NCBI GenBank assembly: GCA_021432655.1
Contig: MU271635.1
Coordinates: 1-36,882 of the forward strand
Source of the DNA: Atractiella rhizophila
Taxonomy: Eukaryota
DNA: 36,882 nucleotides
Direction of reading: 5' to 3'
Positions 5,260 to 36,579 of the stretch are shown one piece after another. The notes under the pieces were generated by a model, which searched no databases, was not told the DNA's origin, and saw nothing but the letters and a program-made list of their open reading frames with translations. Position 1 is the stretch's first letter; each line of letters opens with the position of its first letter. Made by a program: the position numbers and the translations under genes.

Positions 5260-6528
5260 CATTGTGATAGTCATTTACAGCATCTCACGAATTTTCTAGG
5301 TCTGCGATGCTGATCCACTTGTCCTCAGATGGTGAATATGTTGGATTAGCTATTAAATTTCATGGTGTTGCCTTTGTGTGGTCAGCCACCCTAGCTGTGT
5401 TTACTTACTTCGTAGTTTTTCTCCCTAGGGGGCAGTCTTGGTGGTCATCATCTTTGACCACCAACTCCTGTCCCCTAGGTATGTGTTTCCTTATCAATCC
5501 TATCATCTTTGACCACCAACTCCTGTCCCCTAGCTCCATCCAGTGTCTATTCCTCTCAGAATACCCTTTGTATTGAACGCGATATTTGAAAACTCTATTT
5601 CGGGTACCGAACCATTTTCCATCAATGATTTTTTCCTCCTCCCATTCTTCAATTCCATTCACCAATTCCGGAGGTAGTTTGGGCAACTGGACTCTGCCAG
5701 GGATGTCGTCTTCGTTGACTTTTCGTATTAGGCCCACATGGAACACTGGATGTATCTTCCATGAGGATGGCAACTCGAGTTTAAGGTTGAGGGGACCCAA
5801 AACTTGCAAAACGCGAAAAGGGCCATGCCATTTCTTGTCCAACTTTTTTGACAGGTCTCATCGATTTGATGTTTTTTGCGCTCAACCAGACGAAATCACC
5901 GACATGATATTCGGGCGCTGGTGCACGTTTTCTATCATAATGCTTTGCCATGAGCTGCTTGCTCGAGTGCCGCTTGTGCTTCCCAGTCGGCGATTTACAT
6001 CTTTTCGACAAATTGCGCCGCTGTGGGGATGTCCTCGTCCGAGATGGTTTCAAAAGCCATGTGGGAATGTTGACCGCAATCGAGTGAAAATGGAGTTACG
6101 CCCGTCGCCGAACTGACACAATTGTTGAGCGCAAATTCTGTGTTGGGAAGTCCTTCTACCCAATTATCCTGAAGGTGGTTGCAGAAAATGTGCAAATATT
6201 GTTCAACCTCTTGGTTCATATGTTCAGTCTGACCATCACTTTGTGGATGATAGGCTGTTGATGGTGAACCTTTGATACCTAATAGGCGAAAAAGCACAGA
6301 TGTGAATTTGAACACAAACTCTTTGCCTCAATCGAAAATTGCGACATCGAAAAGTCCATGTAACTTCCAAACGTGATCGCGAAAAAGTCTTGCAAGGCAT
6401 TCTGCATCCATTGTCAAATGGGTGGGGATGAGATGGGTGCGTTTTGAGAGTCTGTCAACTATGACGAAAATCGTGTCAAACCCCCCTGATTCTGGGAGTG
6501 GTCTAACCAAGTCCATGCTGACAATTTG
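5260..6528 (-). pseudogene. Ty3/gypsy (chromovirus) integrase with GPF motif and chromodomain, truncated and decayed
   Basis: IVSMDLV..LP.S.GFDTIFVIVDRLSK, STAYHPQSDGQTE, GPFRVL, IHPVFHV, chromodomain EWEEEKII..YRVQYKGYS|PSEDKW; stops and frameshifts; upstream pol replaced by other repeats at 6529. Confidence 0.93.
5339..5558 (+). mobile_element. solo LTR (220 bp) of the same copia family, inserted in the gypsy chromodomain
   Basis: TGTTGG...TCTCA; TSD GAATA at 5334-5338 and 5559-5563; reverse complement closely matches 3028-3246. Confidence 0.95.
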
Positions 6529-6859
6529 TGTAATGGTTAGGCCACATACATTATAGGAGATACTGGAACCTTCTGGAGCCTCTTAGAACAGCCTAGAACA
6601 TTACTCTGGAATATGGTAGAACAGTCTAGAATATCCTCTGAATAACCTTAACTGCCATTGCTTAGAGTGTCTGGAATATTCTGGAACAATTCCATAACCA
6701 CATAAAAGGAGCTCAAACGAGTAAGGAATCCAGACATTCCAATGACTCTACTCCTTCAGTACATTCCAGAGACTAGATCAATATATCTTATTTCCGAGTA
6801 TTCCCTTTATTGCTTTCTTGATCCAACTATCTTAGGTGTTTCAATAAACATATGTTACA
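6529..6859. repeat. LTR-like fragment of a third family
   Basis: Begins TGTAA exactly where the gypsy integrase is cut; repeated CTGGAA/CTAGAA motifs like those in the LTR at 8822-9006; possible ends TTACA (6859) or CTAACA (7029); no TSD found. Confidence 0.5.
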
Positions 6860-7265
6860 GTTTATGGCAGTGCCTTTACATATGTATATATACATTGAGA
6901 TGTAGTGGTGGTGACCTTAGAGTATTCTCTTAGGTTTACCTCCACTACAGGTTAGTCTTCTCATGCCGTACTACTCTCTTAGGTTTACCTCCGCTACAGA
7001 CGCATCGCCCGTTGGCGTTTGCCCTAACAATTATATCTTATATCTGATTATTCTGTTTGTTGCTTGCCTAATCTAGTTATTCTACATGTTTTTATGAGAT
7101 ATACTTTACAGTTCATGGTGGTGCCCTTACATATGTATAAATAAATTGAGATGCAGTGGTGACAATGACCTTAGAGTACTCTCTTAGGTTTATCTTGACT
7201 ACGGGTTAGTTTTCTCATGCCATACTATGCTCTTAGGTTTATTTCCACTACAGACACATCATCCT
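6855..7265. repeat. diverged ~165-bp direct repeat (about 6855-7020 and 7106-7265); third partial copy about 8055-8140
   Basis: Shared ttacagtt.atgg..gtgcc.ttacatatgtata...gaccttagagta.tctcttaggttta...ggttagt.ttctcatgcc.tacta..ctcttaggttta blocks. Confidence 0.75.
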
Positions 7266-7353
7266 TTGACCACCGTAAGCTTGGTGATTAAAGCAACAAG
7301 GGGTAAATTTGATCTTTACAAGAGTGATTGAGTCTAACAAGAAACTGTGAAGT

Positions 7354-7730
7354 ATGGACTTCAAACCCAGCAACTCAGAGGTAACAATCTATACTAAGAG
7401 AGATGAAAAGACCGGGAGATATATACTGGTAGTGGTATACATTGACAACTTTCTCGCTCTTGCCAAGAACGATAATGGGCCCATTGTTGTTAAGCAAGAA
7501 CTTGAAAAACATTACAAGGTCAAGGACAGAGTGAGACCTCACTAGTTCCTCAGTATCCACATAACCTAGTCTGATAATGGGATCCTCAGTCATCAGGAAG
7601 CAGTTATGAGGCTGCTGGAGAAGTCCAGGATGAAGAGCTGCATGCTGGTTTTAAAGGGAGTCTCAAGAGTGAAGATGGATAATGCAATGGAGGAAATTAG
7701 GATGAATGGAACATAGAATGTGAGGGGAGT
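7354..7730 (+). pseudogene. degenerate copia reverse-transcriptase fragment followed by a PPT-like tract
   Basis: FKPSNSEVTIY...ILVVVYIDNFL...VKQELEKHYKVKD resembles the copia RT YVDD region; TGAGGGGAG at about 7721-7729. Confidence 0.7.
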
Positions 7731-9006
7731 TTTATCAGGTGACTGCAACACTTACACCTTCTACGTTCTGGAAGCATTCATGCCTCCTATTATCTTTGCT
7801 TTGGTGTGCTCAAGTTTTCTTTTCACTTCTAATTATGCTTTCTCATTATTCAGCACACTCCTGAGATAACAGCGAATTGCCCTACAAGTGTGAGACCACA
7901 TTCTTATTTGGTTTAGTCTCATACCTTGCAGGTGATGTATTTCACTTTACATAGTTAGAATACATTCTCATTTGGTTTGGTCTCGTGCCTTATATCCTTG
8001 CCAGTTGTGCATTCATAAACTTATCAGTATATAGATTGGAGACAAGTGGAGGTGGCATTATAGTAGTCTCTTGGGTTTTTCTCTGCTATACGTTAGTCTT
8101 TCCATATCATATTATGTACTTAAGTTTACCTATACTACAGCCAAATCACCAATTGACGACCGTACATAACATCTGCCTTAACACCTTCAGCCCAACCTTA
8201 CCTACATGGTTGAGAGGAGCATCTAAAGCAAAGACTATTGTCTGTACTATTCTTTCTTCCCTTATATGAACCATGCAACTTGTATGTTTAGTTACCATAC
8301 ACCTATATAAATACCTAGCTTTAGACCCATTTCTATCACCAGCAAAGCAAAGCAAACTTTACAAAAGTACACTGATTTAATAAGTTGTCTCCATTCAGTT
8401 TGCCACCCAAACAGAAAGAGGCATCAGGGCTGGCATTGGACATATGTATACTCAAACAGGGTTTGTAATTTAGTGGTGAATGACCGTTTCTCCTTTTACA
8501 TTATAAGTACAGGCAAAGTAATCCTGGTAAAGTAAAGGTAAATGTCCAGTTTACTTGGTGTAGTACTTGATAAGGGGTAGCTTCTCCAATTTGTAGAAAA
8601 AGTACTGAAATCGAATTATTATTTATACTCTCTGTTTAAATAAGTCATTTGAAGCGTGAAGAGGATTTGTTGTAGTTAAAGAGATATAAGTTTTACTCTG
8701 CCACAGTTTTGTTGCAATACTTTCTTAGCTTCTCTTCCAATCCAGGAGCAGAGAGATGCTCCCCAACCTGTATCATCTTCATGGATAAACTTCACAAACA
8801 ATGTAGTTGTTCATGTTCTTCTGTCAGGGTTTGCTTATGGAGCATGATTCATATTCTGGAATACGTGGCAAATGGTCTAGAAGATTCTATTAGACATGTG
8901 TCAAATAGAGTTAATGATGGAATATACTGGAACATTCTGGAACTTGTGTCTGTCTATATATAAATACCCCTGCCAATAGAGTGAGATATCCAGATTGGTT
9001 CTCTTA

Positions 9007-12589: not shown

Positions 12590-13107
12590 TAGGATATCCA
12601 CTCTACTTGGCAGCTTCCCCTATTACTCACAATAACAAGAGTGTTAGCCCTAACATCTTCACCTGTCCTGGAAATCTGCTAAAACAATCATGCATTGGAT
12701 GCTTGTTGGAGGCTCGCGGTATTTTCAGGCTGGAAGACCACATGGGGATTCAAATGGATGTGGGGGAAAATTTTGCAGTTTGGGGTGGCCAGAAACCTTA
12801 AATGTTATTATCTTTACCTAAAGCTGGACGTCTTGGTGCTTTAAGAGTAAAATACTGGTAGGGTAACATAAGGCAGTAAGTGTGAACACTTCACTGAAAG
12901 TCTTGAGCACTAGAACTAGTGCAGTACACATTTTGGTCATAAAAAAGGACTTGTTGGTACCGTGAATCGAACACGGACAGGCAGAGAACCGTGACCCCAC
13001 AATCTGACATGCAGCCATTACATCATACCAACTACACTGTGCGTTCTTCCCTTTGACAAAAATATATACACACAACGTAAGGCGGCTCGTTGCAACCCTA
13101 CTTAATC

Positions 13108-13114
13108 TGACTCA
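13108..13114 (+). promoter_or_regulatory. TGACTCA Gcn4/CpcA (AP-1)-type site upstream of ThrRS
   Basis: Exact 7-mer; such sites are known upstream of fungal aminoacyl-tRNA synthetase genes; function here is inferred. Confidence 0.4.
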
Positions 13115-13131
13115 GGATTCTTTCATTTCTC

Positions 13132-16100
13132 ATGTGTTTTCATCTCTCAAATCTTTGGCTTCGACGTCTGGCTTCCCCCCTGTCGTTGATTAGTGCATCC
13201 AACTCCGTTCTACGCGACCTTCCGCGCTCACTGAGTACGCAATCTCGTTACACGATGTCGAAAGAAAAGAAAACAGCAGCCCCAGCCCTTCCTTTAGAGC
13301 GCAACCCACCCTCTGCTTTTATTGCCGAGAGAATTGAGAAATGGAATAGGCTGAAGGCAGCATTGGAAGCAGAACTTGCGACGAAGGAGAGAGATGCAGT
13401 AAAATACATTATCAATGGAACGGAGGGTGATGGACGTAGGTGGGAAACGAAACCTTGGGACCTGGTTGATAAGAGCGCCAAAGATAGAATTGTAATTGCA
13501 AAGGTATGGTTTTCATGTATGAGCAGTAGGGTATCTTTGATCGGGTGAGAACGTAAATGCTGCTTCCGCAACAGATCGTCAGACAGCAGAGATCTCAGGA
13601 GTCTGCATATAATGCAATTAGCCGAGTATTTGCACTTAGATAGTTCTGGGGACTATGTTTCGTGTCGTTTGCTGGATTCAGCGCATTCCTACATGTACTA
13701 ATGACAGTGCTAGGTGAACGGCGAGTTATGGGATTTACAACGACCGTTAGAAGCGGATTGTTCTACAATAGAATTTTTGGACTTTGAACATCCAGAAGGT
13801 AAATTTACGACAATACTTAGATGCAGACTGAATGATTCAAATCTCGAAGGAAAACAAGTATTCTGGCATTCGTCAGCTCATGTTCTGGGAGAGGCTGCTG
13901 AACGACACTATGACAATTGCCATCTGTGCCTGGGACCTCCTACTGATGAGGGCTTTTTCTACGAAATGGCTTTGGGAGAAGATGGCACCGGGTCAGTAAT
14001 CATTCTTATTACCTCGTCGTCTTTCCTAAGCCAACCTAACAGGGTCGTTAAAACGGAAGAATGGCCACTCCTTGAGCAGGTGTCGAAGAAGGTTATTAAA
14101 GAAAAACAACCGTTCGAACGTTTAGTTGTGAAGAAGGAAGATCTATTGGACCTCTTTGGGGTACCTTGCCAAGATTACTTATATTTATGGACTGACCTTC
14201 CCTACATAGTACAACAAATTTAAGGTACATCTCATCAAGGACAAGATCCCAGATGGCTCTTCGACGACTGTCTACCGCTGCGGGCCTATGATCGATCTCT
14301 GCCGTGGCCCGCACATACCGCACACAGGCCGCATCAATTCCTTCGCTGTCGTGAAAGTAGGTTCCTTCTCGCACTCTTGTACCTTATTATCGTTAACGAT
14401 ATGGATGGTATCTAGAGTTCTTCGTCCTATTTCTTAGGCAATGCAGACAACGAAAGCCTTCAGCGAATCTACGGTATTTCATTTCCGGATAAGAAGCAGA
14501 TGGATGAATACAAGAAGTTCAAAGAGGAAGCTGCGAAGAGAGATCATCGAAAAATTGGCAAAGTACATACTTCGTGATATAGATAGGCGTTTGAGCTGAT
14601 GTTTTGTCCAGGATCAAGAGCTTTTCTTCTTCCACGAACTGTCGCCAGGAAGTTGCTTCTGGCTGCCAAATGGAACGAAGATATACAATAATATCGTGGC
14701 ATTGATCAAGGTGAGCTACGAGCATGATTAGACGGAATTAATAACGAAGTCACCGGTAGGAAGAGTACCGAAAGAGAGGATACCAAGAGGTCATCACCCC
14801 GAACTCGTTCAACGTGGACCTTTGGAAGCAATCTGGACATTGGGATCACTATCGGGAGAACATGTTTCAATTCGGCGTCGAGAATCAAACCTTTGCTCTG
14901 AAGCCTATGAACTGCCCCGGACATTGCCTCATATTCAACTCAAGAGAGAGAAGTTACAAGGAACTGCCATTACGCATGGCGGACTTTGGCGTGATACATA
15001 GAAACGAGGCGTCTGGTGCTTTGAGTGGTCTTACTAGAGTGCGAAGGTTTCAACAGGATGATGCGCACATCTTTTGCATGCCAGAACAGGTTGCTAGCCG
15101 TTTCCTTGACACCTGGCTTGTCTTAACAAGTCTTTAGATCGAGTCTGAGATGTCCGGCGTCTTTGACCTGCTGCGAGCCGTCTACGGCCTGTTTGGATAT
15201 GATTTCTTCCTCGAGTTGAGCACGAGACCGGAGAAGTATCTCGGAAAACTAGAGACCTGGGAATATGCCGAGAGCGTATAGTACCCCACCACTCTTTAAT
15301 TTCGCGAAAGAGCTCATGAATGCTAGACTTTGAAACGCGTGCTCGAAAAAGAGGTCCCAGGAAAGTGGACTCTGAACCCAGGAGACGGTTAGCACCAACT
15401 TTCCTCTTCTCGTTTTAAAGTTGAATCCTTTCAGGTGCATTCTACGGACCCAAAAGTGAGCGTCTTTTCGTTTGACCCTGGCACATGTTCAACGCTGTCA
15501 TTAGTCGACATCACCATTCAGGACGCTTTACGTAGACGTCATCAATGCGCTACCATCCAGCTCGATTTCCAACTACCAGAAAGATTTCAGTTAAATTACA
15601 GAACAGCGGAGGGATCGGCTGCAGATACGCTAGATCAACGTGCGAGGCCCGTTATGATCCACCGCGCCATCGTGGGAAGCATAGAACGCTTTTTCGCCAT
15701 TCTCGTAGAGCATTTTGCTGGCAAATGGCGAGTTTATCCTCTACTCATAGCGCAAACCCTAAACTCAGGTCAGGCCGTTTTGGTTGAGCCCTCGTCAAGT
15801 CGTCGTCATTCCCATCGCCGCTGCCCATAAAGAGTACGCGAAGGAGGTTGTTCAAACGCTATGGAATGCCGGCATCGACGCCGAGGCTGATTTAAGTGAT
15901 CAGACACTACCAAAGAGAATTGTACGTGCCTGTATCGTGTGGTCTCATCATGCTAAGGTGTTCGTTGCAGAGAAATGGCGAGATCGCCCAATTCAACTTT
16001 ATCCTAGGTGAGTACTCTCATTGTTCATAAAAACACCCAGGGGCTCATGTGAAAGCAGTGGTCGGAAGTGAAGAGCTTGAAACCAAAACAGTGAACGTCC

Positions 16101-21775: not shown

Positions 21776-22041
21776 GTTATTGCTTCGTCGTTTGCAACTC
21801 GCGACAACAACAGCAAACACCAACCAAGCTAAGGCACGTGCCTTGAAATTATCAGATTACGTACGAGGAGGCGGCTGTAGGGTTAGGCCCGGTGGCTCCG
21901 TTTATTTTCCTTCCAGCCAAAACAAAGACAGCGGGTGAGTTAACACAACCAAGGTGAGCAAAGCGGCTTCTGTGCGGATAATGTCCGGGAATCAGTGGAA
22001 TGAGGAGTGTCTGACAAGTATCCCGTGCTGGCAGCTTCACC

Positions 22042-23077
22042 ATGTCGCAACTTCCTCCCGTGTTCGCCCTCAATGAGGAGGATCTTAGCTTGATGCTGGC
22101 TGCTCAGACACACATTGGAGGCAAAAATGTTACTAAGGTATGCCGTCACTCATAGTGGTTCCTACTCTTATGCGCGACTGCAGGGAATGGAGCCTTACGT
22201 CTGGAAGCGACGACCAGATGGTGTGAACATTATCAAGTGTGCTCTCCTCGTACTGTGGGACGGAAACGGTGCTGAAGGCAGATTGTAGCTTGGGCATCAC
22301 TTGGTCCAAAATTGTCCTCGCTGCCCGACTCATAGTCACGATTTCTCCCGCGAACGACGTCGTTGCCATTTCCTCCAGGCCTTACGGTCACCGTGCCGTC
22401 CTCAAATACGCTTCGCACACAGGTGCCCACGCTATTGCCGGAAGGATTACTCCCGGTAATTTCACCAACTACATCACCAAATCTGTAGGTCGAGGTTTGA
22501 TTCTCTGACTGAGATTTTGATCGAGTTTTTGTTTTGGCTTTTAGTTCCGTGAACCGCGCCTAATTATTGTCACTGATCCCCGTGTGGACACTCAAGCCAT
22601 CCGCGAATCATCATACGTCAACATCCCCATCATTGCCCTTTGCGACACCGACGCTCCTCTCCAATTTGTTGATGTTGTAATTCCCTGCAACAACAGGTCT
22701 GTTCACAGCATAGGTCTCATCTGGTGGCTGCTTTGCAGGGAAGTCCTCAGACTCCGTGGAACTATTGCAAGGGGACCTGACGCTTGGGGAGTCATGCCCG
22801 ATCTGGTTCGTCGTTAGTGGTCCAACCGACGAATCTTAACATGATCTGTCGTAGTTTTTCTTCAGGGATCCTGAGGAAATCGAAAAGGAGAACGAGGCTA
22901 AAGGCGCAAGCGCTGAAGTTGCCGCAGCAGCCCCCGCTCCTGAGTGGGATGGGGCTGCTGCCAACATCGGCACAACTGGTGGGGAGGCAGCTTTGGATTG
23001 GGCACAGGAAGGTGGTGCTGTGAGTTACTCCTTCCATTCCAGTATGCATGATGAAACTCACCATGGATCTAGGATTG
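22042..23077 (+). CDS. RPS0: 40S ribosomal protein uS2 (S0/SA), multi-exon; final exon displaced (see 25176-25218)
   Basis: [104 protein letters not shown]. Confidence 0.97.
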
Positions 23078-23105
23078 TAAGCTGGTTGTTCTGTTGGTTG
23101 TTACC

Positions 23106-23171
23106 NNNNNNNNNNNNNNNNNNNNNNNNNNNNNNNNNNNNNNNNNNNNNNNNNNNNNNNNNNNNNNNNNN
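23106..23171. other. assembly gap (66 N)
   Basis: Run of N. Confidence 1.
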
Positions 23172-24758
23172 TTATTTACCCCACCTTAGTTTCTGTTTCG
23201 CGCTACGTTCGCAGAACACCCTCTTGTTTAGTTTGTCGAAAGAGGGTTCTGCACCCTCTTATCCGTACTTAACCACGTAAAGCACCTCTGACTTCTTCAA
23301 GACCTCGCTCGAAACCTACTACACCTCTCTCTCCTGGTCTTGCTCTCTCTTCAGCTTAAGCCAGTAGAGCTTGTCTCGGAAGCTAGAAAACACGAAAACT
23401 TCTCCAGGGTCAGCTTCGAGCGGGGGCGATCCGTAATAGAGGAGTTGGAGGAGCGACTAGAGCGGTAAAACCCTCTGCGCTTGCACCGACGTCGGCTCTT
23501 CCTCAACCTCCAATGACAAGTTCTCAACCTTTCTTAATACGGACTCTTACTCTCCAACTTATTCCGCTCCCTACTCCAACTCCTCCTGTAGTGCTCCCAC
23601 CTCCTCCTCTAGCACCTTTCACACTCCTGGAATCGGAACTGCTTCGAGTTTTGGCGTCAGTTATAATAACCTCTACCTGCACAGTAAGGCAAGTTGGTTC
23701 CTCCACGGTTCCTCCTTCGCTAAGCAGCGGAATAGTACCTACTGCCGAAAGTGTAAGGGTGGGTGGAGGGACTTATAGGGCCATAGGATCCTTAAACCGT
23801 TACCCGACGACTCCAGTCCCTGAGCGAACAATACAGCAACCTTCCCCTCCAGTCCAACCACCTTCTTCATTGCTCCGTTCTTTGCTGACGACCTCAGGCG
23901 CTCTAGTACTACCTGGATCCGTTGTTCATAGAAGGTCTCCGGCTTTTCCTTTCTTACTAGCACAAAAGTCTGGCCTCCAGTACAAGTTGTTCTCCTCCTT
24001 CCCTAACCTGTCCGCAAAGGTCCAAGAACGACCTCCGCAACCTGAGCCACGCTGAGTCTTAGTAAGATAACTCCAAAGACACGAGCTGAAGAAGCTGGAG
24101 CTGTCTAACAAGTTCCAATAAGTTCCTGTCTTCCGGCAGGTTTTCCAGCTTCTTCGACTACGACCTTGAGAGTCACATCAGTCGGAACCGCAACCTCGGA
24201 AGTGATACAAACCAAGCTCCCGTTAACCGCATTCCCCTAAACACCTTCCACACAGAGCGAAACGGCTCTATAATCCTTCGTTCGTGCGGTCCTTCACCCG
24301 ACCCGGTCAACAACCACAAGAGTCATGCAGTAGTATGGTAACTGAACTTACTAAGGTTGATTGCTAGAATACTATCGAGAGCCGAACCGGCAGATGCACT
24401 AATAACTGGACGGAGCACGGTAGGGAGCTTTGTAACCTTTCTTTGAAGTCCGAAGAATGGAAGGGCGAAGCAGGAGAAGAGTGGAAGAGCGTAGTAGGTG
24501 TTTGCTCCTCAGAAAGCGCTCGCGAGTGAGCCTAGCTCACAGCTTTCTTTGAGCTTTTCAAGAGGCGTACCGACCGACCCTAGAGTCCCTCTTCAAGTCC
24601 TCACGCAACCTCTTCTCACTCCTTCTCTTCTTTCTTGAGCTCCGCAGCTTCTTATTCCGACTTGTACGCGACCGAACCGAGCTGTCAAGAACCCAGTCCA
24701 TCCCTGGCTGCTCTTCTTCCATTGGCTGCACTTAAACTGGGGGTTTTGACAAGAGACT
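23172..24758. CDS. FZO1: 3' half of mitofusin FZO1, readable only as the complement left to right
   Basis: NKWGGIKDKARCKRLVGEQIKQLSPKTW..ELVHFV; FGHLEQSLRSFVLLKRSQSKLAPARHYL; PEYPGILGIWQWA; hydrophobic segments; an intron near 24324-24376; RVSKETRKVLR; small indels near 23950 and 24685 make the stop uncertain (about 24702 or 24758). Confidence 0.93.
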
Positions 24759-25175
24759 AGGCAGAAGGGAACAAACCACTGAAGTACTACTATCTTAACT
24801 AGATCAAAGCGTGAACTAAAGCTAGTTAATACGTGGACGAGTGAGTTCCCAGCGGTATCAAACAAGAAAAACTATATATAGCGGTTATAACAACTATCCT
24901 TTATAAGACGAAATAATGATACTTCGCAAGGGACGAGTCCAGCCGCGTGGTGATTCTTCCTAAACAATATGCATTCGTCATTGGACCGTATTGGTTTTCG
25001 ACTTTACCTTCGTAGGTTTTCTGGGTATGATACGACTCATGGTACGGAATGGTTAAGACCGCTGAAAAAAAGTACCCGACGAGTTAGGCCATGATCGAGT
25101 CTGAGCGTCTCCGTAAACGTTAGACTTTTACTCTCGTATTTTCGAACGTACCAAAAATCGTACCTCTCATGTAGT

Positions 25176-25218
25176 AGTAAGGGTAGGGCAGCTTCAGCCG
25201 ACTCGTCCGCACCGCAGG
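25176..25218. CDS. RPS0: terminal exon of RPS0, readable only backwards on the + strand
   Basis: Backward read gctaaatctgctcag|G GAC GCC ACG CCT GCT CAG CCG ACT TCG ACG GGA TGG GAA TGA = (W)DATPAQPTSTGWE*, a typical uS2 Trp-containing tail behind a branch site and acceptor. Confidence 0.8.
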
Positions 25219-25265
25219 GACTCGTCTAAATCGATATCTAAGAGAACTTCCGTATCTATTTGGAT

Positions 25266-26508
25266 CACGACGACGAAAACGTAGGCCTTCTCCCTCGAAG
25301 CATTGAGGAGGAATTCCTTTGCAGACAGCGTGAAGTGATTCTCGGCCGACACGACGAAGACGATGACGTCGATTTCGGATTGGCGTGCAAATACAGCAGT
25401 CGTAGAGAGCGTATCGCGGTTAAGGCCTGGCGCATCGATGAGAGAGATGTTAACGAGGCCGTTGTTAATGAACGTCTGCTGAGGGGTTCCGGCATTAATA
25501 TGTTCCTCTTCCAGCTCGTTGATGTAGACCTTAATGATCTGGTACGGGGACTTTGGCTTTTCCTCGAACTCATCATCGATGTCGTCTGCGTCCACGGTCT
25601 CTTCGATCTGTACCAACTTGTCCAGTTGCTCCAGACTGAATCTCTCGAAACTGGCTGGTTCCTTCGGGTCGTACCTTTCAAGCTCTCCGATACGAATAGC
25701 ATGCACTTCCTCGAGACCGCCATTGAACTTGGCAGCGTCGACAACCTCGCAGAAGACTTCGGTGCAAGGTTGCTGATCGGTCGGCATGAGTTCCCTCCTC
25801 AACAGAGCGTTGACCAGGGTAGATTTTCCGGCATTTAGGTCACCAGTCACGAGAACACGGGAGCTGTTGTCTAAGACCCTATTCTTGAGCACGGAGAGAT
25901 GAGCAAGAGAGGAAGTGAGCCGCCTGGAGAGGAGTTGAGATAGCGTGGAAAGCGACAGCGACGGAAGGAGGGCCGGGAGCGTCGCACCAGAGGTTGTGGT
26001 AGGAAGGGACGTTTTCAAGTCGAGGGAGAGGATAGAAAGGGGATGGGTAGGGGTTGACTTGGAAGGAGCGGGAGGAGACGAAAGACCATTGACGACGTCG
26101 ATGGAGAGAGCACGCTGAGGCTCAGGTCGTGAGGGCTCTTCCGAGGGGGATCCGGTGAACAGCGACGCAGACCTCTTGAAGGGAGCGGACGAGGACTTGC
26201 TGAGACCTAACTGGTGTGGGTAGCGGATGCTCCAATGCTCGGAGTTGAAGTTTTGAAGCGAAGAGAGGAGGTTTGAAGCGGAGTCGATGGATCCGACGAG
26301 GCTATCAATCGACAATTTTGAAAGGTGGTGAACCAGCGTTGCAACAAAGAATGAAGACTCACACTGCGCGGTTCTGAGCAAACACCTCGGGATGCTCTGG
26401 GTTAGAGGCGACTCCGTCAGAAACGGGGGAGGGAAGGGTTGATGGGAGGTCGGAGGTAAGGGACGAGATTGAGTCCCTCGACAGGGACCTCTTTTCTGCC
26501 AGCGACAT
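25266..26508 (-). CDS. FZO1: mitofusin (dynamin-related GTPase), 5' half
   Basis: ATG 26508; intron about 26303-26362; RVLVTGDLNAGKSTLVNALL, PTDQQPCT, LIDAPGLNRD, IDVIVFVVSAENHFTLSAKEFL..EKAYVFVVV. Confidence 0.95.
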
Positions 26509-26754
26509 GGTTTATTATGATGGGATATACGACGTTAAGTGCTGAGTGTCTAAGTGGCAGGATAAGTGGGTAGGGAAGGAGTAGGCGGATAGGTGGATAA
26601 AGAGAAAATAGGGTGGCGAACTCCCTGAGGGGTTAACTCTAGTCAAGGGAAACTAGAAATGAAATTAAAATCTTTGGGGCAGCTGAGCGACCAAGCGCTC
26701 GTTCAAGACAGCTAGAGGGCACTCAACATCGCTGTGTAGCATCTACGAGCACAT

Positions 26755-29700
26755 ATGGAAGACTTCTCAAACGAAAGCGCTTCTCCTGAGGACCTCCCAC
26801 TTCACACACCACCCAGCGACTCGTACTACAACCACTATTGGGACTCCCACAGCGTTCAAATGGACGGATACGGCATAAAACAGAATGGAGCTGTGAAAAA
26901 CGAGGAGGATTGGAATGCTCGCAACATATCTTTCGAAGACATAATAGCTGAGGACGAGTGCGGGTCTGTCTCTTCTGTTTTGGTTCAGAATGCAAGATGG
27001 CTCAAGGAGGTTTAGACCTTCGATGAGCGATATTCCAGTCGACCCTTCCTTACTCCCGCAATCCCTACCCTCTACTTCCTCTGGTCCATTTTCCAGCGTT
27101 TTCAAACACCTCAGTGCTTTCATTCCACCTCAGTTCACCTCGCCAGCCTCTCTCTCCATCAAACCCTCCGACCCGGCCACCGTTCAACCTCAGCACGCCG
27201 CCGCTCCTCTTCAAATGCATCCTGAATTTGTTCAGGCCGGCGCACGAAAAGCTGTTCCACTCGTCTCCAACATCCAAGCCTTTTCCACCCCAGCACGAAC
27301 ATCCTTACCGCATCCCGCCAGTGCGTTTGCTCATTCTTGGTCTACCAGACGAAGGAGCACAGAACCGAGTGGAGACGCAAATGAAGATCACGCTGGCCCT
27401 GGTCCAAGACAAAGATCCTGACGCCATTCCTGTGGAACGATGCAAGAATGCGATGGTTGGCTCACGGAGGAGGCGAGCGAGCAATACATGCGGGTGGGAA
27501 GCTACAGTCACATCAAGCTACCAGGTTTCTCTGCCCTAAAGAAGAGGAACCCAAAGCATATCAAGCAAGGCATTCCCGAAGAGGAGACCCTTTTTGTGGA
27601 TGTTGAAGTCGTCGCTTGCACCACCGGAGACGTCGTCAGCTGTTGCTCCTCCTGTATTGAGAGGGAACGAAAGCGCTCACAGCGGAAGATCGAGAACCGT
27701 GTGCGACCTGCTTTGGAGGTACCCCCAGACAGGGAGGAATTGGAGGATGATTTTGAGGCCAAGAAGATTGTCGTCTTTAATTGTGGGCAGATGATCAGCT
27801 TCGAGAATGGAGAGGCGACCCTCCCAATGCGGATAACTTGCTACTGCCGACATCATTTCAAGGAGAAGAAAGGATTCGTGTTTGTCTCCCTTCCTCTCAT
27901 TTGCAAGCTTTAAACTCACAAACTTGCAGCGTCTGCTTCCGACTACGCAATCACGTTGGACAAATAGTCGCTGAATCCATGACACCTCCAATCATGATAA
28001 CCGACAATCACAAGGCGAAACCAGCTTCTGCTGCCGCTAACCTGGACAATTTTGGCTCTACCTCGACATCGTACGACACATCCATGTCGCTAAAGGCTCC
28101 ACGACGTGCACGAAAAGGGAAGGAGCTCCCGGCACGTAGTTCAAGAGGCAAATTACGAGCAGACGAAGACGATAGCGAAGAGGAGGCATGGGTACGGAAG
28201 GAACACGAGAAGAAGCCATACGAAAGACCCTTACATGCCAAGAACAACGGTAGAAAAGCGTCCAAGCTTACCATGACGCCGCTCAATCTTTCAAAACCGC
28301 CCTCTCCTCAACTCCATCCTCTTTCCTCGGGGATGGCTACTCCACCAGACTTCTTCAACCTTCATGGCCCATTCTTCAGCATCTCATGAGCCTGTCTTTG
28401 CAAATGCATTCGCCTCCTACGGTTCCCAGACCTCTAGCTCCGTTCCTTCCCCTGTTGCGCTACGGAACAACACTCCGCTCCCTTCTCGTGGATCTCAGGG
28501 TCATCCAGCTCTGGCGGCAGATTCACCTGAAGCGAGTATTGACAGCGCTTTCTCTTCAATGTTTGGAGGTGGACCAGCGGGAACGAGCGCGACGTCAACA
28601 ATGAATGATGCCCTGGACGGCAAGCCGGTGCTCAGCAGGGTCATCCCAAGCTCGGGACCTACGTATGGTGGAATAGAAGTGACTATCGTACGTTAATCAT
28701 TCTTGCAAACGAAAAGCCACTCATTTCATTCATAGCTTGGGGAAAACTTCGGAGACCGCATTATGGGACAGACTTTACAAGTTATGTTTGGCGACACACC
28801 CGCTACAACTATGTGGTACTCGTCGACAACCCTTCTGTGCACCTTACCTCCATGTTCGACTCCTGGACCTGTTCTTGTCAGTCTGAAGGATATGCCGATT
28901 ACTCTTGAGCAAGGAAATGTCCTCCCTCTCTTCACATATACAGACACCACTGACAAGCAGCTCCTCGAGCTTGCACTTCAAGTCGTCGGATTACAACTAA
29001 GTAAGCTGCGGCCTATTGTAGATGTCCACTCTGACAGTTTGGGGCAGTGGGACGAGTTGAACCGCCAGCTAACATTGCACGTCGCCTTCTTCAAAGCGGA
29101 CAAGGGTCGCTTAACCAACAAAGCTTCGTGGGTCAGCGAGACGGTTTCGGCTTTGAATCCATGGTTCTGCGTTTCTTGTCCCTCTTGGAGACGGAGACCG
29201 ATCTTGGGGAAAACGACGCAATCTCTCACGTGACTCGCCAGGGTCACACGCTCCTACACCTTGCTGCATGTTTAGGATTCAGCAGACTTACTGAGTTTTT
29301 GATTAAGAAGGATGTGGATATCGATGCTCGTGATTTGAACGGGTATACATGCCTGCATTTTGCGTCCGTCGCTTCACATCATCAGTTCTTGAGGCCGTAA
29401 CTGATAATGACTTGCAGGGCCTTATTCAGCCGCCAGAAAATCACGCGCTTGTTGTTACAAGCAGGAGCTAGTCGGTTCATTCGCACAAACGATGGGAGGA
29501 CTGCGCTCAGGATCGCTAAGGCAAATGGGCAAGATGATATCGTTGCCCTGTACTCAAAGTATCGTGGAGGGGCTATGACTCCACCGCATCTGAGAAGGTC
29601 GGGATCACTGGCATCGCTCACCTCGATCAGAGCAGAAGCGACGGAAGCATCTTCTGAAGGAGATCAACCTGATTCCTCAGAGACATCAGATTTGGAGAGA

Positions 29701-30826: not shown

Positions 30827-33800
30827 TCAATATGAACCAGAAGAAATGGGCTTCACCCTTCCCCGTCCCGCACCACCTCTTCGACCTCTTCCTCGACCCC
30901 TTCCAGTGCCGCGCTGTGCAGCCTGGACTCGTTTGCTCTCTTCTTCAAACCATTTCTCAAAACTCTCTTGCTCTTCTCTTCTCCTTCTCTCCTCGTCTTC
31001 TTCAGCTTGAATATCTTTCAAGCTTCGAGTATTTTTCACCTTCTGCTTAATTGCATCGCCTTCGACTTGTTGCTGAGCTTGTATACCAGCAAAGGAGGAA
31101 ATGGATGGAGACGTCGCCTCCAGAAAAAAGTCATTAACGTTAGAGTTGGTAGAAGTATAGTTGTTCCACGGCGTGCTTTGATCTGCTCGATTGTTGGGTC
31201 GGGAAGACGTGGAGCTGACTGACCTTAGGGGAGAGATAACAGGAGCACCAACAGCCGATGCGGGATTGCTTCCTCGTCTGTCTAACTGGGCAGGCGGAGC
31301 GGAAGATCTATTGAAAGAAGCATGAGAAACCTTCGATTGCATAGGACTGCTAGCTTTGCCCTGCTCTGCTTGGATGTCCACGAGGGAAACCTTCGAGGAG
31401 GCAGTTTGTGCGCGCCAGTTAAGACTCGATGCCGCTTTTCCTGGTGATCTTAAAGGGCGCGGAGGGGTAAGTACCTGACTGGAAACTGCAGGTACCGCAG
31501 TCGGAGGGGTGGATGAAGGTTGAGGGTATGGAGATTGATGACCTAAAGTGCGTTGCGTATTGGCCGAGGTTTCCACCATGATGTCCCGTAAACTGGCAGG
31601 TCTAGATAAATCATCAGCTAATAACGAACGAGCAAGGGAGGACTACGCGCCGATTCTGTTGAGAAGCTAATCTCCAAACCTGTCCTGTTGTTGTAACGGT
31701 TGGTGGAGTGGAGAAATTCCCCTGCATTGGAAGGTCTGCGGATACCAACAATTGCGCTGACGAGCCTGTTGGCGTTACAGGCAATTGGGCGGGTAACGCG
31801 TCTGATGGAGTGCCAACCGACATCACAGCAGATGGCAGTGTTGGGACCTCCTCGTCCATGTCCATGAGAAACTGTTCTTCACCTTCGTGAATTGCAGGTA
31901 TGGGGCTGCGGTCGGGCGATGAATACGGATTGAAGGGTGGAGAGAGGTGTCTCAATGGGCAAGGATTCGAATACAGAAGGTGAGATGTAGGATGAACTGC
32001 CGTATTGTGGAATAGAAAGACCATCTTCGCGAGCAGCAGCATCCACACAAAGTTTGAGGCAGTTTCCTGCTTCTAGACACCGGACTGAAGTCGAATTGGA
32101 GCTGGCGCGCATGTACAGCGAGATCGTTCATTAAAAAATCGTCTGCATCGTCCAGTAATCGCATCTCCATTGCCGTTTCGAGATTCCGGCAAAGGAATGA
32201 CATGATGACCTGTTTTAGTGAATGCAAGTGATAGAAATCTGCATCCGCGAGGATGGAGATGCAATTGTTAAGACTGATGATAGGACGCAGGACCGCACCG
32301 CAGATTGATTTCAAGCGGTCTAGTAAAAATTCGTTTGCGACCGAAAGCATTTCGGTCATGAAATCAATAAACTGATTCGTTTTCTCTCTCTCTGCGCCGG
32401 ATTATGAATATATGACATGACAATGAATGGGCACCGACCTATATCATCGAAGATCTGCTCCCCTTCTCCAACATAGATGTGACGCAATATCAAGTTCGCT
32501 AGTTCCATCGAAACGTGACCGACGTCGATCAAAATTTTGTCCTTCCGTCCTTCTCTTCTAGCTTTTGTCCAAACCTCGTCCCCCAGCAGAAGTGCGAAGA
32601 AGCCACACCGGGCTTTCATAACCTCTTCATGAACATCGATGTCACCATCTTTAAGCTTGAGCCACAGTCGGCTGGAGCAATAGTCCGGTCTCGGAACAAG
32701 CAATTAAAGTTCGAGGAAATTGTTCTTTGGATTGTTCGCAGATATGGAGCAGNNNNNNNNNNNNNNNNNNNNNNNNNGCGGGATTGCTTCCTCGTCTGTC
32801 TAACTGGGCAGGCGGAGCGGAAGATCTATTGAAAGAAGCATGAGAAACCTTCGATTGCATAGCACTGCTAGCTTTGCCCTGCTCTGCTTGGATGTCCACG
32901 AGGGAAACCTTCGAGGAGGCAGTTTGTGCGCGCCAGTTAAGACTCGATGCCGCTTTTCCCTGGTGATCTTAAAGGGCGCGAAGGGTAAGTACCTGACTGG
33001 AAACTGCAGGTACCGCAGTCGGAGGGGTGGATGAAGGTTGAGGGTATGGAGACTGATGACCTAAAGTGCGTTTGCGTATTGGCCGAGGTTCCCACCATGA
33101 TGTCCCGTAAACTGGCAGGTCTAGATAAATCATCAGCTAATAACGAACGAGCAAGGGAGGACTACGCGCCGATTCTGTTGAGAAGCTAATCTCCAAACCT
33201 GTCCTGTCGTTGTAACGGTTGGTGGAGTGGAGAAATTCCCCTGCATCGGAAGGTCTGCGGATACCAACAATTGCGCTGACGAGCCTGTTGGCGTTACAGG
33301 CAATTGGGCGGGTAACGCGTCTGATGGAGTGCCAACCGACATCACAGCAGATGGCAGTGTTGGGACCTCCTCGTCCATGTCCATGAGAAACTGTTCTTCA
33401 CCTTCGTGAATTGCAGGTATGGGGCTGCGGTCGGGCGATGAATACGGATTGAAGGGTGGAGAGGGTGTCCCAATGGGTAAGGATTCGAATACAGAAGGTG
33501 AGATGTAGGATGAACTGCCGTATTGTGGAATAGAAAGACCATCTTCGCGAGCAGCAGCATCCACACAAGTTTGAGGCGGTTTCCTGCTTCTAGACACCGG
33601 ACTGAAGTCGAATTGGAGCTGGCGTGCATGTACAGCGAGATCGTTCATTAAAAAATCGTCTGCATCGTCCAGTAATCGCATCTCCATTGCCGTTTCGAGG
33701 TTCCGGCAAAGGAATGACATGATGACCTGTTTTAGTGAATGCAAGTGATAGAAATCTGCATCCGCGAGGATGGAGATGCAATTGTTAAGACTGATGATAG

Positions 33801-36579
33801 GACGCAGGACCGCACCGCAGATTGATTTCAAGCGGTCTAGTAAAAATTCGTTTGCGACCGAAAGCATTTCGGTCATGAAATCAATAAACTGATTCGTTTT
33901 CTCTCTCTCTGCGCCGGATTATGAATATATGACATGACAATGAATGGGCACCGACCTATATCATCGAAGATCTGCTCCCCTTCTCCAACATAGATGTGAC
34001 GCAATATCAAGTTCGCTAGTTCCATCGAAACGTGACCGACGTCGATCAAAATTTTGTCCTTCCGTCCTTCTCTTCTAGCTTTTGTCCAAACCCCGTCCCC
34101 CAGCAGAAGTGCGAAGAAGCCACAGCGGGCTTTCATAACCTCTTCATGAACATCGATGTCACCATCTTTAAGCTTGAGCACACAGTCGGCTGGAGCAATA
34201 GTCCGGTCTCGGAACAAGCAATTAAAGTTCGAGGAAATTGTTCTTTGGATTGTTCGCAGATATGGAGCAGATGCAGCGAGCTCGAGTTGCGGAAGTTGCA
34301 GAAGCTTTGATATTTTCTGAAGCTCCAGACGGATGATGTTATAGTCGACAACGGTGGCTGAATTGCGAGCCTGAAGTTGTTTGAGGATCCCGTAATCCCA
34401 AATTGCGGCGACTTGGTCTGTGTAAAGATAGTAGATGAGAAGGAGGATGGAAAGACTTGAAGCATCGGAGAGTATTAGCCGCATTCGATGGTCCAGTGCG
34501 ATGTCCAATGCGATGCCCGCAACGGACTTTTTGCTTTGGATCGCATCCCGAAGGACCGAGCACCTAGCCATGACCACCGTGCTAGCAATCCTCCATCCTT
34601 TCAGATCACGCCCCATCAGCACCAAATCGTAATTTCCCATTTCCCCTTCCCACTCTTCAGCCATGAGAACCAACTGTTTCCCGACATGATAAGACCGCTT
34701 CAAGTCCTCAGCGTAATGGCCCGTGTCCTCCTCACCATTATCATCATCAACTTCAAAGCTCGGCATCCCCTTCTCCTACTCCTCGCTCTTGCTCCTTTTT
34801 CGCCTTCACCCACTCCAGCCCCTCCCACAACTCCTCTCCCCAATCAGCATTCTCGACCTCAATCCCATCTAGCCTTCCAAGTCTCCGAATCGCTGACCAG
34901 GCACCGGTACTATTTCCTCCAACTTGAACAATCCTCTGCAAGCCATGCACTCGATTCCATTTCCACCCATTCCCTCGATCCTTCATCATAAATACCTGCC
35001 CAGAGGCGGTGCACATGAGGAGTTGACCATCAAGTCCAACAGCGACGTCATAGGCGGCGGAGAAGCGAGAGCGGAGAGCCCACACGCGCTTTGGCAAGAC
35101 ACTCGAAGGTGGGAGAGGGACTGCTCCTTGAACAGGCGGTTCTAAGGAAAAGCGAAAAACTTCTCCGTCGGTAGAGAGACACGCAAAAGTTGTCCCACAA
35201 CTAGAAATCTTCCTCATTTTAGGCACGCTCGTCCGCTGAGGAGGAAAGTAGTGCTGAGCTGTCGAGCTTGTAACACGGTGAGGGAAATTGACGCGAACTT
35301 GCTGACCAGCGTGAAAGACGTAGATGACACCGCTGTCAAGCAGTACAGCAGTGGCATACTCGGTCACCTTGACATCCTGGATAGTCTCTGTGACGCCAGC
35401 CAGCTTCCGTGGGAGAATTTGAGGTCCTGTTGTACCGTATCCGAGCTGGCCTTTATTCGATCCCCAGCTCCAACACTCATCCTTCGTCCACGCAACTGTA
35501 TGAGCATTCCCGGCGGCGACCCCAACGACCTCTTCTTTTCTTAATACCCCAACTACCTTCCGCGGTTCCACTTGAATATCTCCTTCACCTTCAAGCTTAT
35601 ACCCAAGCTGCGATTGCTTGTTGCTCCCAAATGTGTAAACTGCGCCAGTTGAAGTGAGGAGAACGGTGTGATCCACTGCCACTGAAACAGCTACCACTCG
35701 ATGTGCAAAGGAGAGTGGAGAGAAATGAAGGACAGGTTGTGTGAAGGTGGATAAGCGACCTTGAGAGGGAGTCGTGTAGCCACAGATGTAGGTATTGAAG
35801 CTCTGTTGATTAGTGATCAAGACTAGACATTTCGTCAACTCAGTTCGTAAATGAGGGACCAACAAACCTGTATGCATCCGCGCCATTGCCACCTGCACAA
35901 TTGAAACAGATTGAAACTTCTTCCTTCCACTTCTCTTCCCTTCCTCTCTTCCAGGCATCAGTGTCACCGCTTCCGGCACAACGCGGTCCTTGTCTCCTCC
36001 CAGGCCAAGAACATAATTCCTGTTCGCCCCCCACATGAACAAATCCCTCCTCCCCTCCTCCTTCTCATCCTCTGCATCGTCCACTGGTATCGTCCCTCGG
36101 ATAGTGTGGTTCCACAAGTCGTAAGCAGTCAACCCTTCCCGATCCTTCACACCAGCGTCTGCACCCCAATAGTCCAACAACTTGACGATTCTCAAATTGC
36201 CGCTGTAAAGAGCGCGGTGCAAAGCAGTCCAGCCGCTCTCAAGATCTTGAGCATCAAGTAGAAGCCTGAGCTCAGACCGTTTGACTAACTGCTCGTCGCC
36301 CAACAAATGCAGGAACTCCAGTGCCAACTCTTCGTCACTCCACACTGCGAGGACATGGAGGACGGTGCGACCAACTGCGTCCCGAGCTCCCAGAGGCGAA
36401 ACGCTCGTCTTCGCCGCCGACGCTATAGGTGGAGATCTAGGAAGTGAGCTAGCTAGGGAGGATGTCGATTTCTTTGAAGCCACGGAATGCGAAATGGTTC
36501 GTAGATGCTTCTTGAAGGCTTGGAGATCGGGTTGGATGAGGACATGGTGAATAGAATAGACGGGTTTAGGCTTGTTCAT
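30827..36579 (-). CDS. ankyrin-RCC1-BTB/POZ protein (IBTK / fission-yeast Btb1-like); 3' part appears twice around a gap
   Basis: GRTVLH, DLESGWTALHRALYSGN, DREGLTAYDL, MWGANRNYVLG, VYTFGSNKQSQLG, WSWGSNKGQLGY, two BTB regions (YYLYTD; LRHIY..ANEFLLDRLKSIC), C-terminal SLKDIQ.EE..FEKWFEEESKR; frameshift near 34760. Confidence 0.9.
31260..34270. repeat. ~1.49-kb direct duplication (31260-32752 and 32777-34270) flanking a 24-N gap
   Basis: Near-identical copies with scattered SNPs and 1-2 nt indels; copy boundaries coincide with the gap 32753-32776. Confidence 0.95.

Follow-up and report, generated by a model that had tools for sequence, protein, structure and literature searches.

The scaffold analysed here, contig MU271635.1 of Atractiella rhizophila, comprises 36,882 bases (referred to as the window) with two runs of N. 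It carries uS2 (RPS0) on the plus strand and the gene of the mitochondrial fusion GTPase Fzo1 (mitofusin) on the minus strand, which lie tail to tail and converge in the real locus. Between the correctly written parts of the two genes lies a block, 23172-25265, in which the true sequence is written in reversed order without complementing. The features of the locus are as follows.

22042-22135, 22182-22236, 22289-22484, 22545-22804 and 22854-23019, plus strand: exons 1-5 of uS2 (RPS0), correctly written (Pfam, contig joints).
23073-23076, plus strand: candidate uS2 micro-exon GATT of 4 nt, predicted between a TAG acceptor and a GTAAGC donor.
23106-23171: run of 66 N, the scaffold gap directly left of the block.
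23172-25265: reversed, uncomplemented block of 2094 nt (homology, k-mer and contig evidence).
23172-24323, complement-only, read left to right: Fzo1 coding exon continuing from 25266, starting NKWGG, with a 1-nt frameshift inside 23943-23956.
24324-24376, complement-only reading: Fzo1 intron of 53 nt (GTACGT .. CTAAC .. TAG).
24377-24702, complement-only reading: last Fzo1 exon (membrane-spanning region and C-terminal helix) with the TAG stop.
24703-25175: stretch between the 3' ends of the convergent genes Fzo1 and uS2 (UTRs and intergenic DNA), which, from the placement of both stops, would be written backwards too.
25218->25176, plus strand read backwards: candidate last uS2 exon of 43 nt, encoding ..DATPAQPTSTGWE and a stop.
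25219-25265, plus strand read backwards: uS2 intron tail of 47 nt with a CAG acceptor at its end.
25266-26534, minus strand: N-terminal half of Fzo1 (dynamin-type GTPase domain), correctly written (Pfam, homologs, contig splice joint).
26302-26362, minus strand: Fzo1 intron in the N-terminal half (contig joint 26301->26363, CT..AC).
32753-32777: run of 25 N, the second gap of the scaffold.

The first base of the block is the first one after the 66-N run, and its right end joins the neighbouring contig without any N. Inside the block a true position x and its written position are converted into each other as 48437 - x, and the reading frame at the junction is preserved exactly only with the block limits 23172-25265. 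The block, whether as written or reversed, showed no similarity to other parts of the window, so that it is not a copy of any of them.

The N-terminal half of Fzo1 (P0001) was recognized by its Dynamin_N domain (PF00350, E 2.8e-17, residues 227-423) and by Fzo1/mitofusin homologs with a best E of 1.3e-109, the top relatives being the Fzo1 proteins of Leucosporidium and Rhodotorula at 56-58% identity. Its minus-strand frame stops abruptly at ..AYVFVVV (25266), as an earlier note made from the letters of this DNA had pointed out. The same note had read the rest of the protein in the complement of the plus strand, from an NKW.. start through the membrane-spanning region and an intron to the C-terminus, and this continuation was seen, apart from a 1-nt frameshift. 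In detail, the complement of the plus strand, read left to right from base 23172, has an open frame of 335 codons that begins NKWGGIKD, whereas the longest frame in the true reverse complement of the block spans only 92 codons (92 aa). After removal of the 53-nt intron the protein reads ..GPVVGVLTLGLAVYVIIDLP, compared with ..GPVIGVLTVGLVIYVIVDLP in P0003, and its TAG stop ends at written position 24702.

Full-length Fzo1 homologs were then compared by tblastn, which covers both strands, with the window as written and with the block reversed in silico but uncomplemented, and a homolog was counted as reaching the block if an HSP with E <= 1e-5 extended into it. As written, none of the 120 homologs had such an HSP on either strand, whereas all 120 had one after the reversal, in continuous alignment across 25265/25266. 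The end of the aligned part shifted from a median 0.44 to a median 0.98 of the protein length (n = 120), and the median of the summed bits over the 120 homologs rose from 270 to 592. When six homologs were aligned, only residues from about 20 to 470 were matched by the written version, while in the reversed one three collinear pieces reached as far as residues 30-933 of 952. The alignment of the reversed version with P0003 ran ungapped through the junction 25265/25266 (..REKAYVFVVVNKWGGIKDKARC.. vs. ..REKAYVFIVVNKWNGIRDKARC..).

The C-terminal half of Fzo1 that the reversal restores, with its membrane-spanning region and terminal helix, was identified by local homology and is collinear with that of the relatives, one frameshift being left. 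This shift of 1 nt, in an A-rich run at written 23943-23956 (24481-24494 after fixing), persists after reversal; it lies between ..YLPEAEKE and NDRVFRPEVMF.., where there is too little space for an intron, and probably reflects an error of one base in the block. After the reversal, the Fzo1 proteins of the Pucciniomycotina yeasts Leucosporidium, Rhodotorula and Microbotryum are 51-57% identical over nearly the whole length.

On the other side of the block, uS2 was assigned by the domains Ribosomal_S2 (PF00318, E 1.4e-14) and 40S_SA_C (PF16122, E 1.9e-08), and its four GT..AG introns were confirmed by spliced contigs of two public runs, X3 and X10. It is 75-83% identical to relatives in the exon tested. 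Reading the plus strand backwards from 25265 gave what the earlier note had described, an acceptor (CAG) and then an exon that ends in ..TGWE and a stop. This exon has only 14 codons, too few for it to be tested separately by homology, and no readable sequence joins it to exon 5. Among the C-termini of 120 uS2 homologs, 93 have a W within the last 8 residues, 33 end in GWD and 8 in GWE; the stretch 25218->25176, read backwards, fits as the last uS2 exon.

The contigs also bear on what the 66-N gap contains. DNA contigs of the runs X1 and X2 extend 227 letters beyond 23105, and an RNA-like contig of X3 extends 162 letters beyond 23019/23020; in either case the first 30 of these letters are absent from the window, whichever of its four readings is searched. 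Since these loose ends are unmatched in the window, part of the uS2 3' end is missing in the N gap, which must contain the remainder of a uS2 intron and one or more further short uS2 exons. After 23019 the spliced X3 contig reads on as G-ATT, and its next letters are those found behind an AG in the X1/X2 DNA contig, 24 nt past 23105. GATT at 23073-23076, with a 53-nt intron on either side, is thus a possible uS2 micro-exon. Save for this possible 4-nt exon, both genes are unremarkable when compared with those of the Pucciniomycotina relatives. The claim that reversing the block repairs both genes therefore goes a little too far: Fzo1 homology is restored over its length and the candidate uS2 exon becomes readable, but the 1-nt frameshift of Fzo1 stays and a 3' part of uS2 lies in the N gap.

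The orientation of the block was also assayed from composition, independently of any gene, using a k-mer score in which each word is compared with its reversed spelling under a strand-symmetric model trained on the rest of the window, in 500-nt windows. For k = 2 to 6, the log-ratio of forward to reversed spelling was below zero in all 7 windows of the block. The mean score at k = 2 was -9.8 inside the block vs. +9.5 (sd 6.4) in 135 outside windows, and at k = 5 the scores ranged from -22.8 to -62.9 inside vs. an outside minimum of -10.0; the outside windows belonged to the training set, which inflates the scores at high k and leaves k = 2 and k = 3 unaffected. The cumulative score turns at 23075 and 25283, reported as within about 30 and about 20 bases of the block limits. 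The swapped dinucleotide ratios that the earlier note expected were borne out, TA/AT being 1.83 in the block vs. 0.67 elsewhere in the window and CA/AC 0.74 vs. 1.28; CG/GC was 1.12 vs. 0.81, and GA/AG was likewise inverted in the block.

No other reversed stretch was detected in the window by the k-mer score, the flanks of the second gap included, and this gap, the only other one in the window, has no reversed block of at least 200 nt beside it. Slightly negative k = 5 scores at 6501-7250, 8001-8750, 12751-13250 and 14001-14500 were not read as reversed, being far weaker than those of the block; the dips at 6501-7250 and 8001-8750 fall in a stretch of low GC (0.37-0.42). This low-GC stretch extends over 6500-9000, where GC is 0.37-0.42 vs. 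about 0.48-0.52 elsewhere and the orientation score is around zero.

Contigs from public runs, built with software other than the assembler of the record, were used to evaluate the written order at the right junction. The runs were identified by words of the flank 25266-29265, which is correctly written, and the contigs of four of them (X1, X2, X3 and X10) were aligned to 22000-26500. X1 and X2 come from one sample and are unspliced, hence genomic, while in X3 and X10 the introns of uS2 and Fzo1 are removed, hence these are RNA-derived. The X1/X2 sample may be the source of the assembly, and its contigs are independent of the assembly software rather than of the organism. The contigs of all four runs match the window from the right down to 25265 and then diverge from its letters. 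Beyond 25265 their consensus extends over 30 letters in X1, X2 and X3 and over 10 in X10, with an agreement of 1, and it occurs in the window only as the reverse-only reading 23202->23173, which adjoins 23172; the letter at 23172 equals that at 25265. As the run contigs continue as 23202->23173 backwards, the DNA and RNA of the organism (or of close relatives) carry the block in the opposite order.

Reads that follow the written block and cross its right junction had been named in the earlier note as the observation that would speak against a reversal; in the contigs built from such runs the opposite was seen, the reversed order being supported in four runs. Cover was zero in 13 bins from 23208 to 25170 in all four runs, which was not counted as evidence. 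At 25503-25641 X1/X2 gave two alternative contigs of 139 nt with different depths and 3-4 differing letters, and many single-letter differences were found between the X1/X2 contigs and the window; this looks like a heterozygous sample or one that differs from the assembled strain.

These results show that the written order of the block is wrong and unsupported by the independent read data, and the mirror-image block beside a gap that had been proposed from the letters is borne out by homology, by k-mer statistics and by independent contigs. Every ORF of the written block is therefore spurious, in agreement with the view taken beforehand of all ORFs called there; a 222-aa ORF at 23387-24055 is without a Pfam family.

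The scaffold shows a further irregularity at its second gap. A stretch of 1493 nt is duplicated on both sides of the 25-N run, at 31260-32752 and 32778-34270, with 98.7% identity; the duplicates differ by 13 mismatches, mostly transitions, and by 6 single-base indels. The duplication has the look of a contig overlap left unmerged, or of two haplotypes placed side by side, and would be a second finishing fault of the scaffold.

The public protein models were examined as well. In the public uS2 model, P0122 (317 aa), the gene is traced as far as 22977, after which the final 74 residues are encoded at 31666-31887 or at 33185-33406, where the sequence is an identical copy. This false C-terminus lies at least 8.7 kb downstream, beyond the entire Fzo1 locus and inside the duplicated stretch, and its sequence is without uS2 character. 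When the N-terminal half of Fzo1 was compared with the proteins of 232-741 and 742-2115 residues, nothing above 66% identity was found, so that no Fzo1 model of this scaffold between 232 and 2115 aa turned up in the protein collection.

The block is almost certainly an artefact of assembly finishing or data handling; a software artefact beside a gap, as suggested by the earlier note, is supported by the contigs, the homology and the k-mer orientation. During scaffolding, gap closing or record building, a piece would have received only one of the two operations that make up a reverse complement. Equivalently, the right-hand contig may have been extended leftwards into the gap, the new piece being stored in walking order and prepended unreversed, or complemented but left unreversed when it was turned back to the plus strand, which would yield exactly the reverse of the true sequence. 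The gap would thereby have been merely narrowed, leaving the N-run on the left of the block and a join free of N on its right; this layout is what an extension of the right-hand contig into a merely narrowed gap would give. The frameshift in the A-rich run and the 1493-nt duplication would be two further signs of rough finishing nearby. Which program and which step were responsible is something that we infer.

Gap fillers are described in PMC3504050 as extending the flanks and leaving Ns where a gap is only reduced. There, flank-extension filling of the PBJelly type likewise narrows gaps and leaves Ns, a gap there being 25 or more Ns, and its 'overfilled' gaps, in which two extensions have no overlap found, are resembled by the 25-N gap 32753-32777 with its duplicated flanks. 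No output in reverse order is described there, and PBJelly is named here only as a comparison. Among the papers matching Atractiella rhizophila and genome, none has a title or abstract start on sequencing or assembling the genome, and the assembly method was not found there.

The same artefact could have arisen at record building without any extension of a contig in place, if a separate, minus-oriented component of 2094 nt had been complemented without reversal by a script for conversion or hand editing. Complementing a minus-oriented piece without reversal gives exactly the reverse of the true sequence, as seen here, and the scaffold has at least two finishing faults; a separate component, however, is more often bounded by N on both sides, while the right side of the block has none. 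We regard this origin as rather unlikely, and it cannot be told apart from an extension of the right-hand contig within one window. That the reversal is absent from the public record and present only in the copy analysed is very improbable, given that the public uS2 model leaves the gene at 22977 for a false last exon, as expected of a gene caller to which the true exon is unreadable, and that no Fzo1 model of the scaffold turned up among the collected proteins of 232-2115 aa, the best identity being 66%.

Explanations in which the strain itself carries an altered locus fare far worse. A genuine chromosomal inversion, that is a reverse complement, or another rearrangement breaking both genes has only the two broken genes in its favour; tblastn covered both strands of the window as written and still placed 0 of 120 Fzo1 homologs in the block, and the genomic and RNA contigs show the intact order at the junction, which makes this reading exceedingly improbable. 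Real 'mirror' DNA, an uncomplemented reversal of two genes on the kilobase scale in the cell, is virtually impossible: the contigs of four runs contradict the written order at 25265, and no known chemistry leads to it according to PMC11403998, as the earlier note had also held of kilobase-scale mirror copies. Among the results there was no evidence for the block being real as written. The block is a data fault, and uS2 and Fzo1 are ordinary and intact in the organism.

An artefact of finishing or data handling could, in turn, stem from a strand-handling bug that acts systematically, in a gap-closing or scaffold-building step applied to many genomes, although we consider this speculative and quite unlikely. 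If it were true, other public assemblies, fungal and otherwise, would hold unmarked backwards blocks of kilobase size beside gaps, by which annotations would silently lose genes and protein databases acquire spurious ORFs, and the k-mer orientation score would detect such blocks on a large scale.

Reversal without complementation is used deliberately as a null model in PMC11403998 and in a preprint (bioRxiv 10.64898/2026.04.14.718546); it is the same operation on the letters, by which composition is kept and homology lost. There, however, it serves as an intentional negative control, while the block here stands unmarked inside a public scaffold. Among the papers listed by a phrase search for uncomplemented reversal as an assembly error, only such deliberate control uses were found and none dealt with an assembly error. 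Ordinary mis-oriented (reverse-complement) contigs likewise are wrong orientations beside a gap that result from scaffolding or finishing, but the genes of such a contig remain encoded on the opposite strand, where any search will find them, whereas the present block is unreadable on both strands (0/120 homologs).

An uncomplemented reversed block is invisible to homology searches on either strand, and standard checks for mis-orientation miss such blocks. The orientation-sensitive k-mer score cleanly separates the block from the rest of the window and could serve in the screening of assemblies. In a survey of gene presence and absence, the species would be wrongly counted as one without the mitochondrial fusion GTPase. 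The value of the finding thus lies in the correction of a public record and in a warning about data quality, and biologically it is of no consequence.
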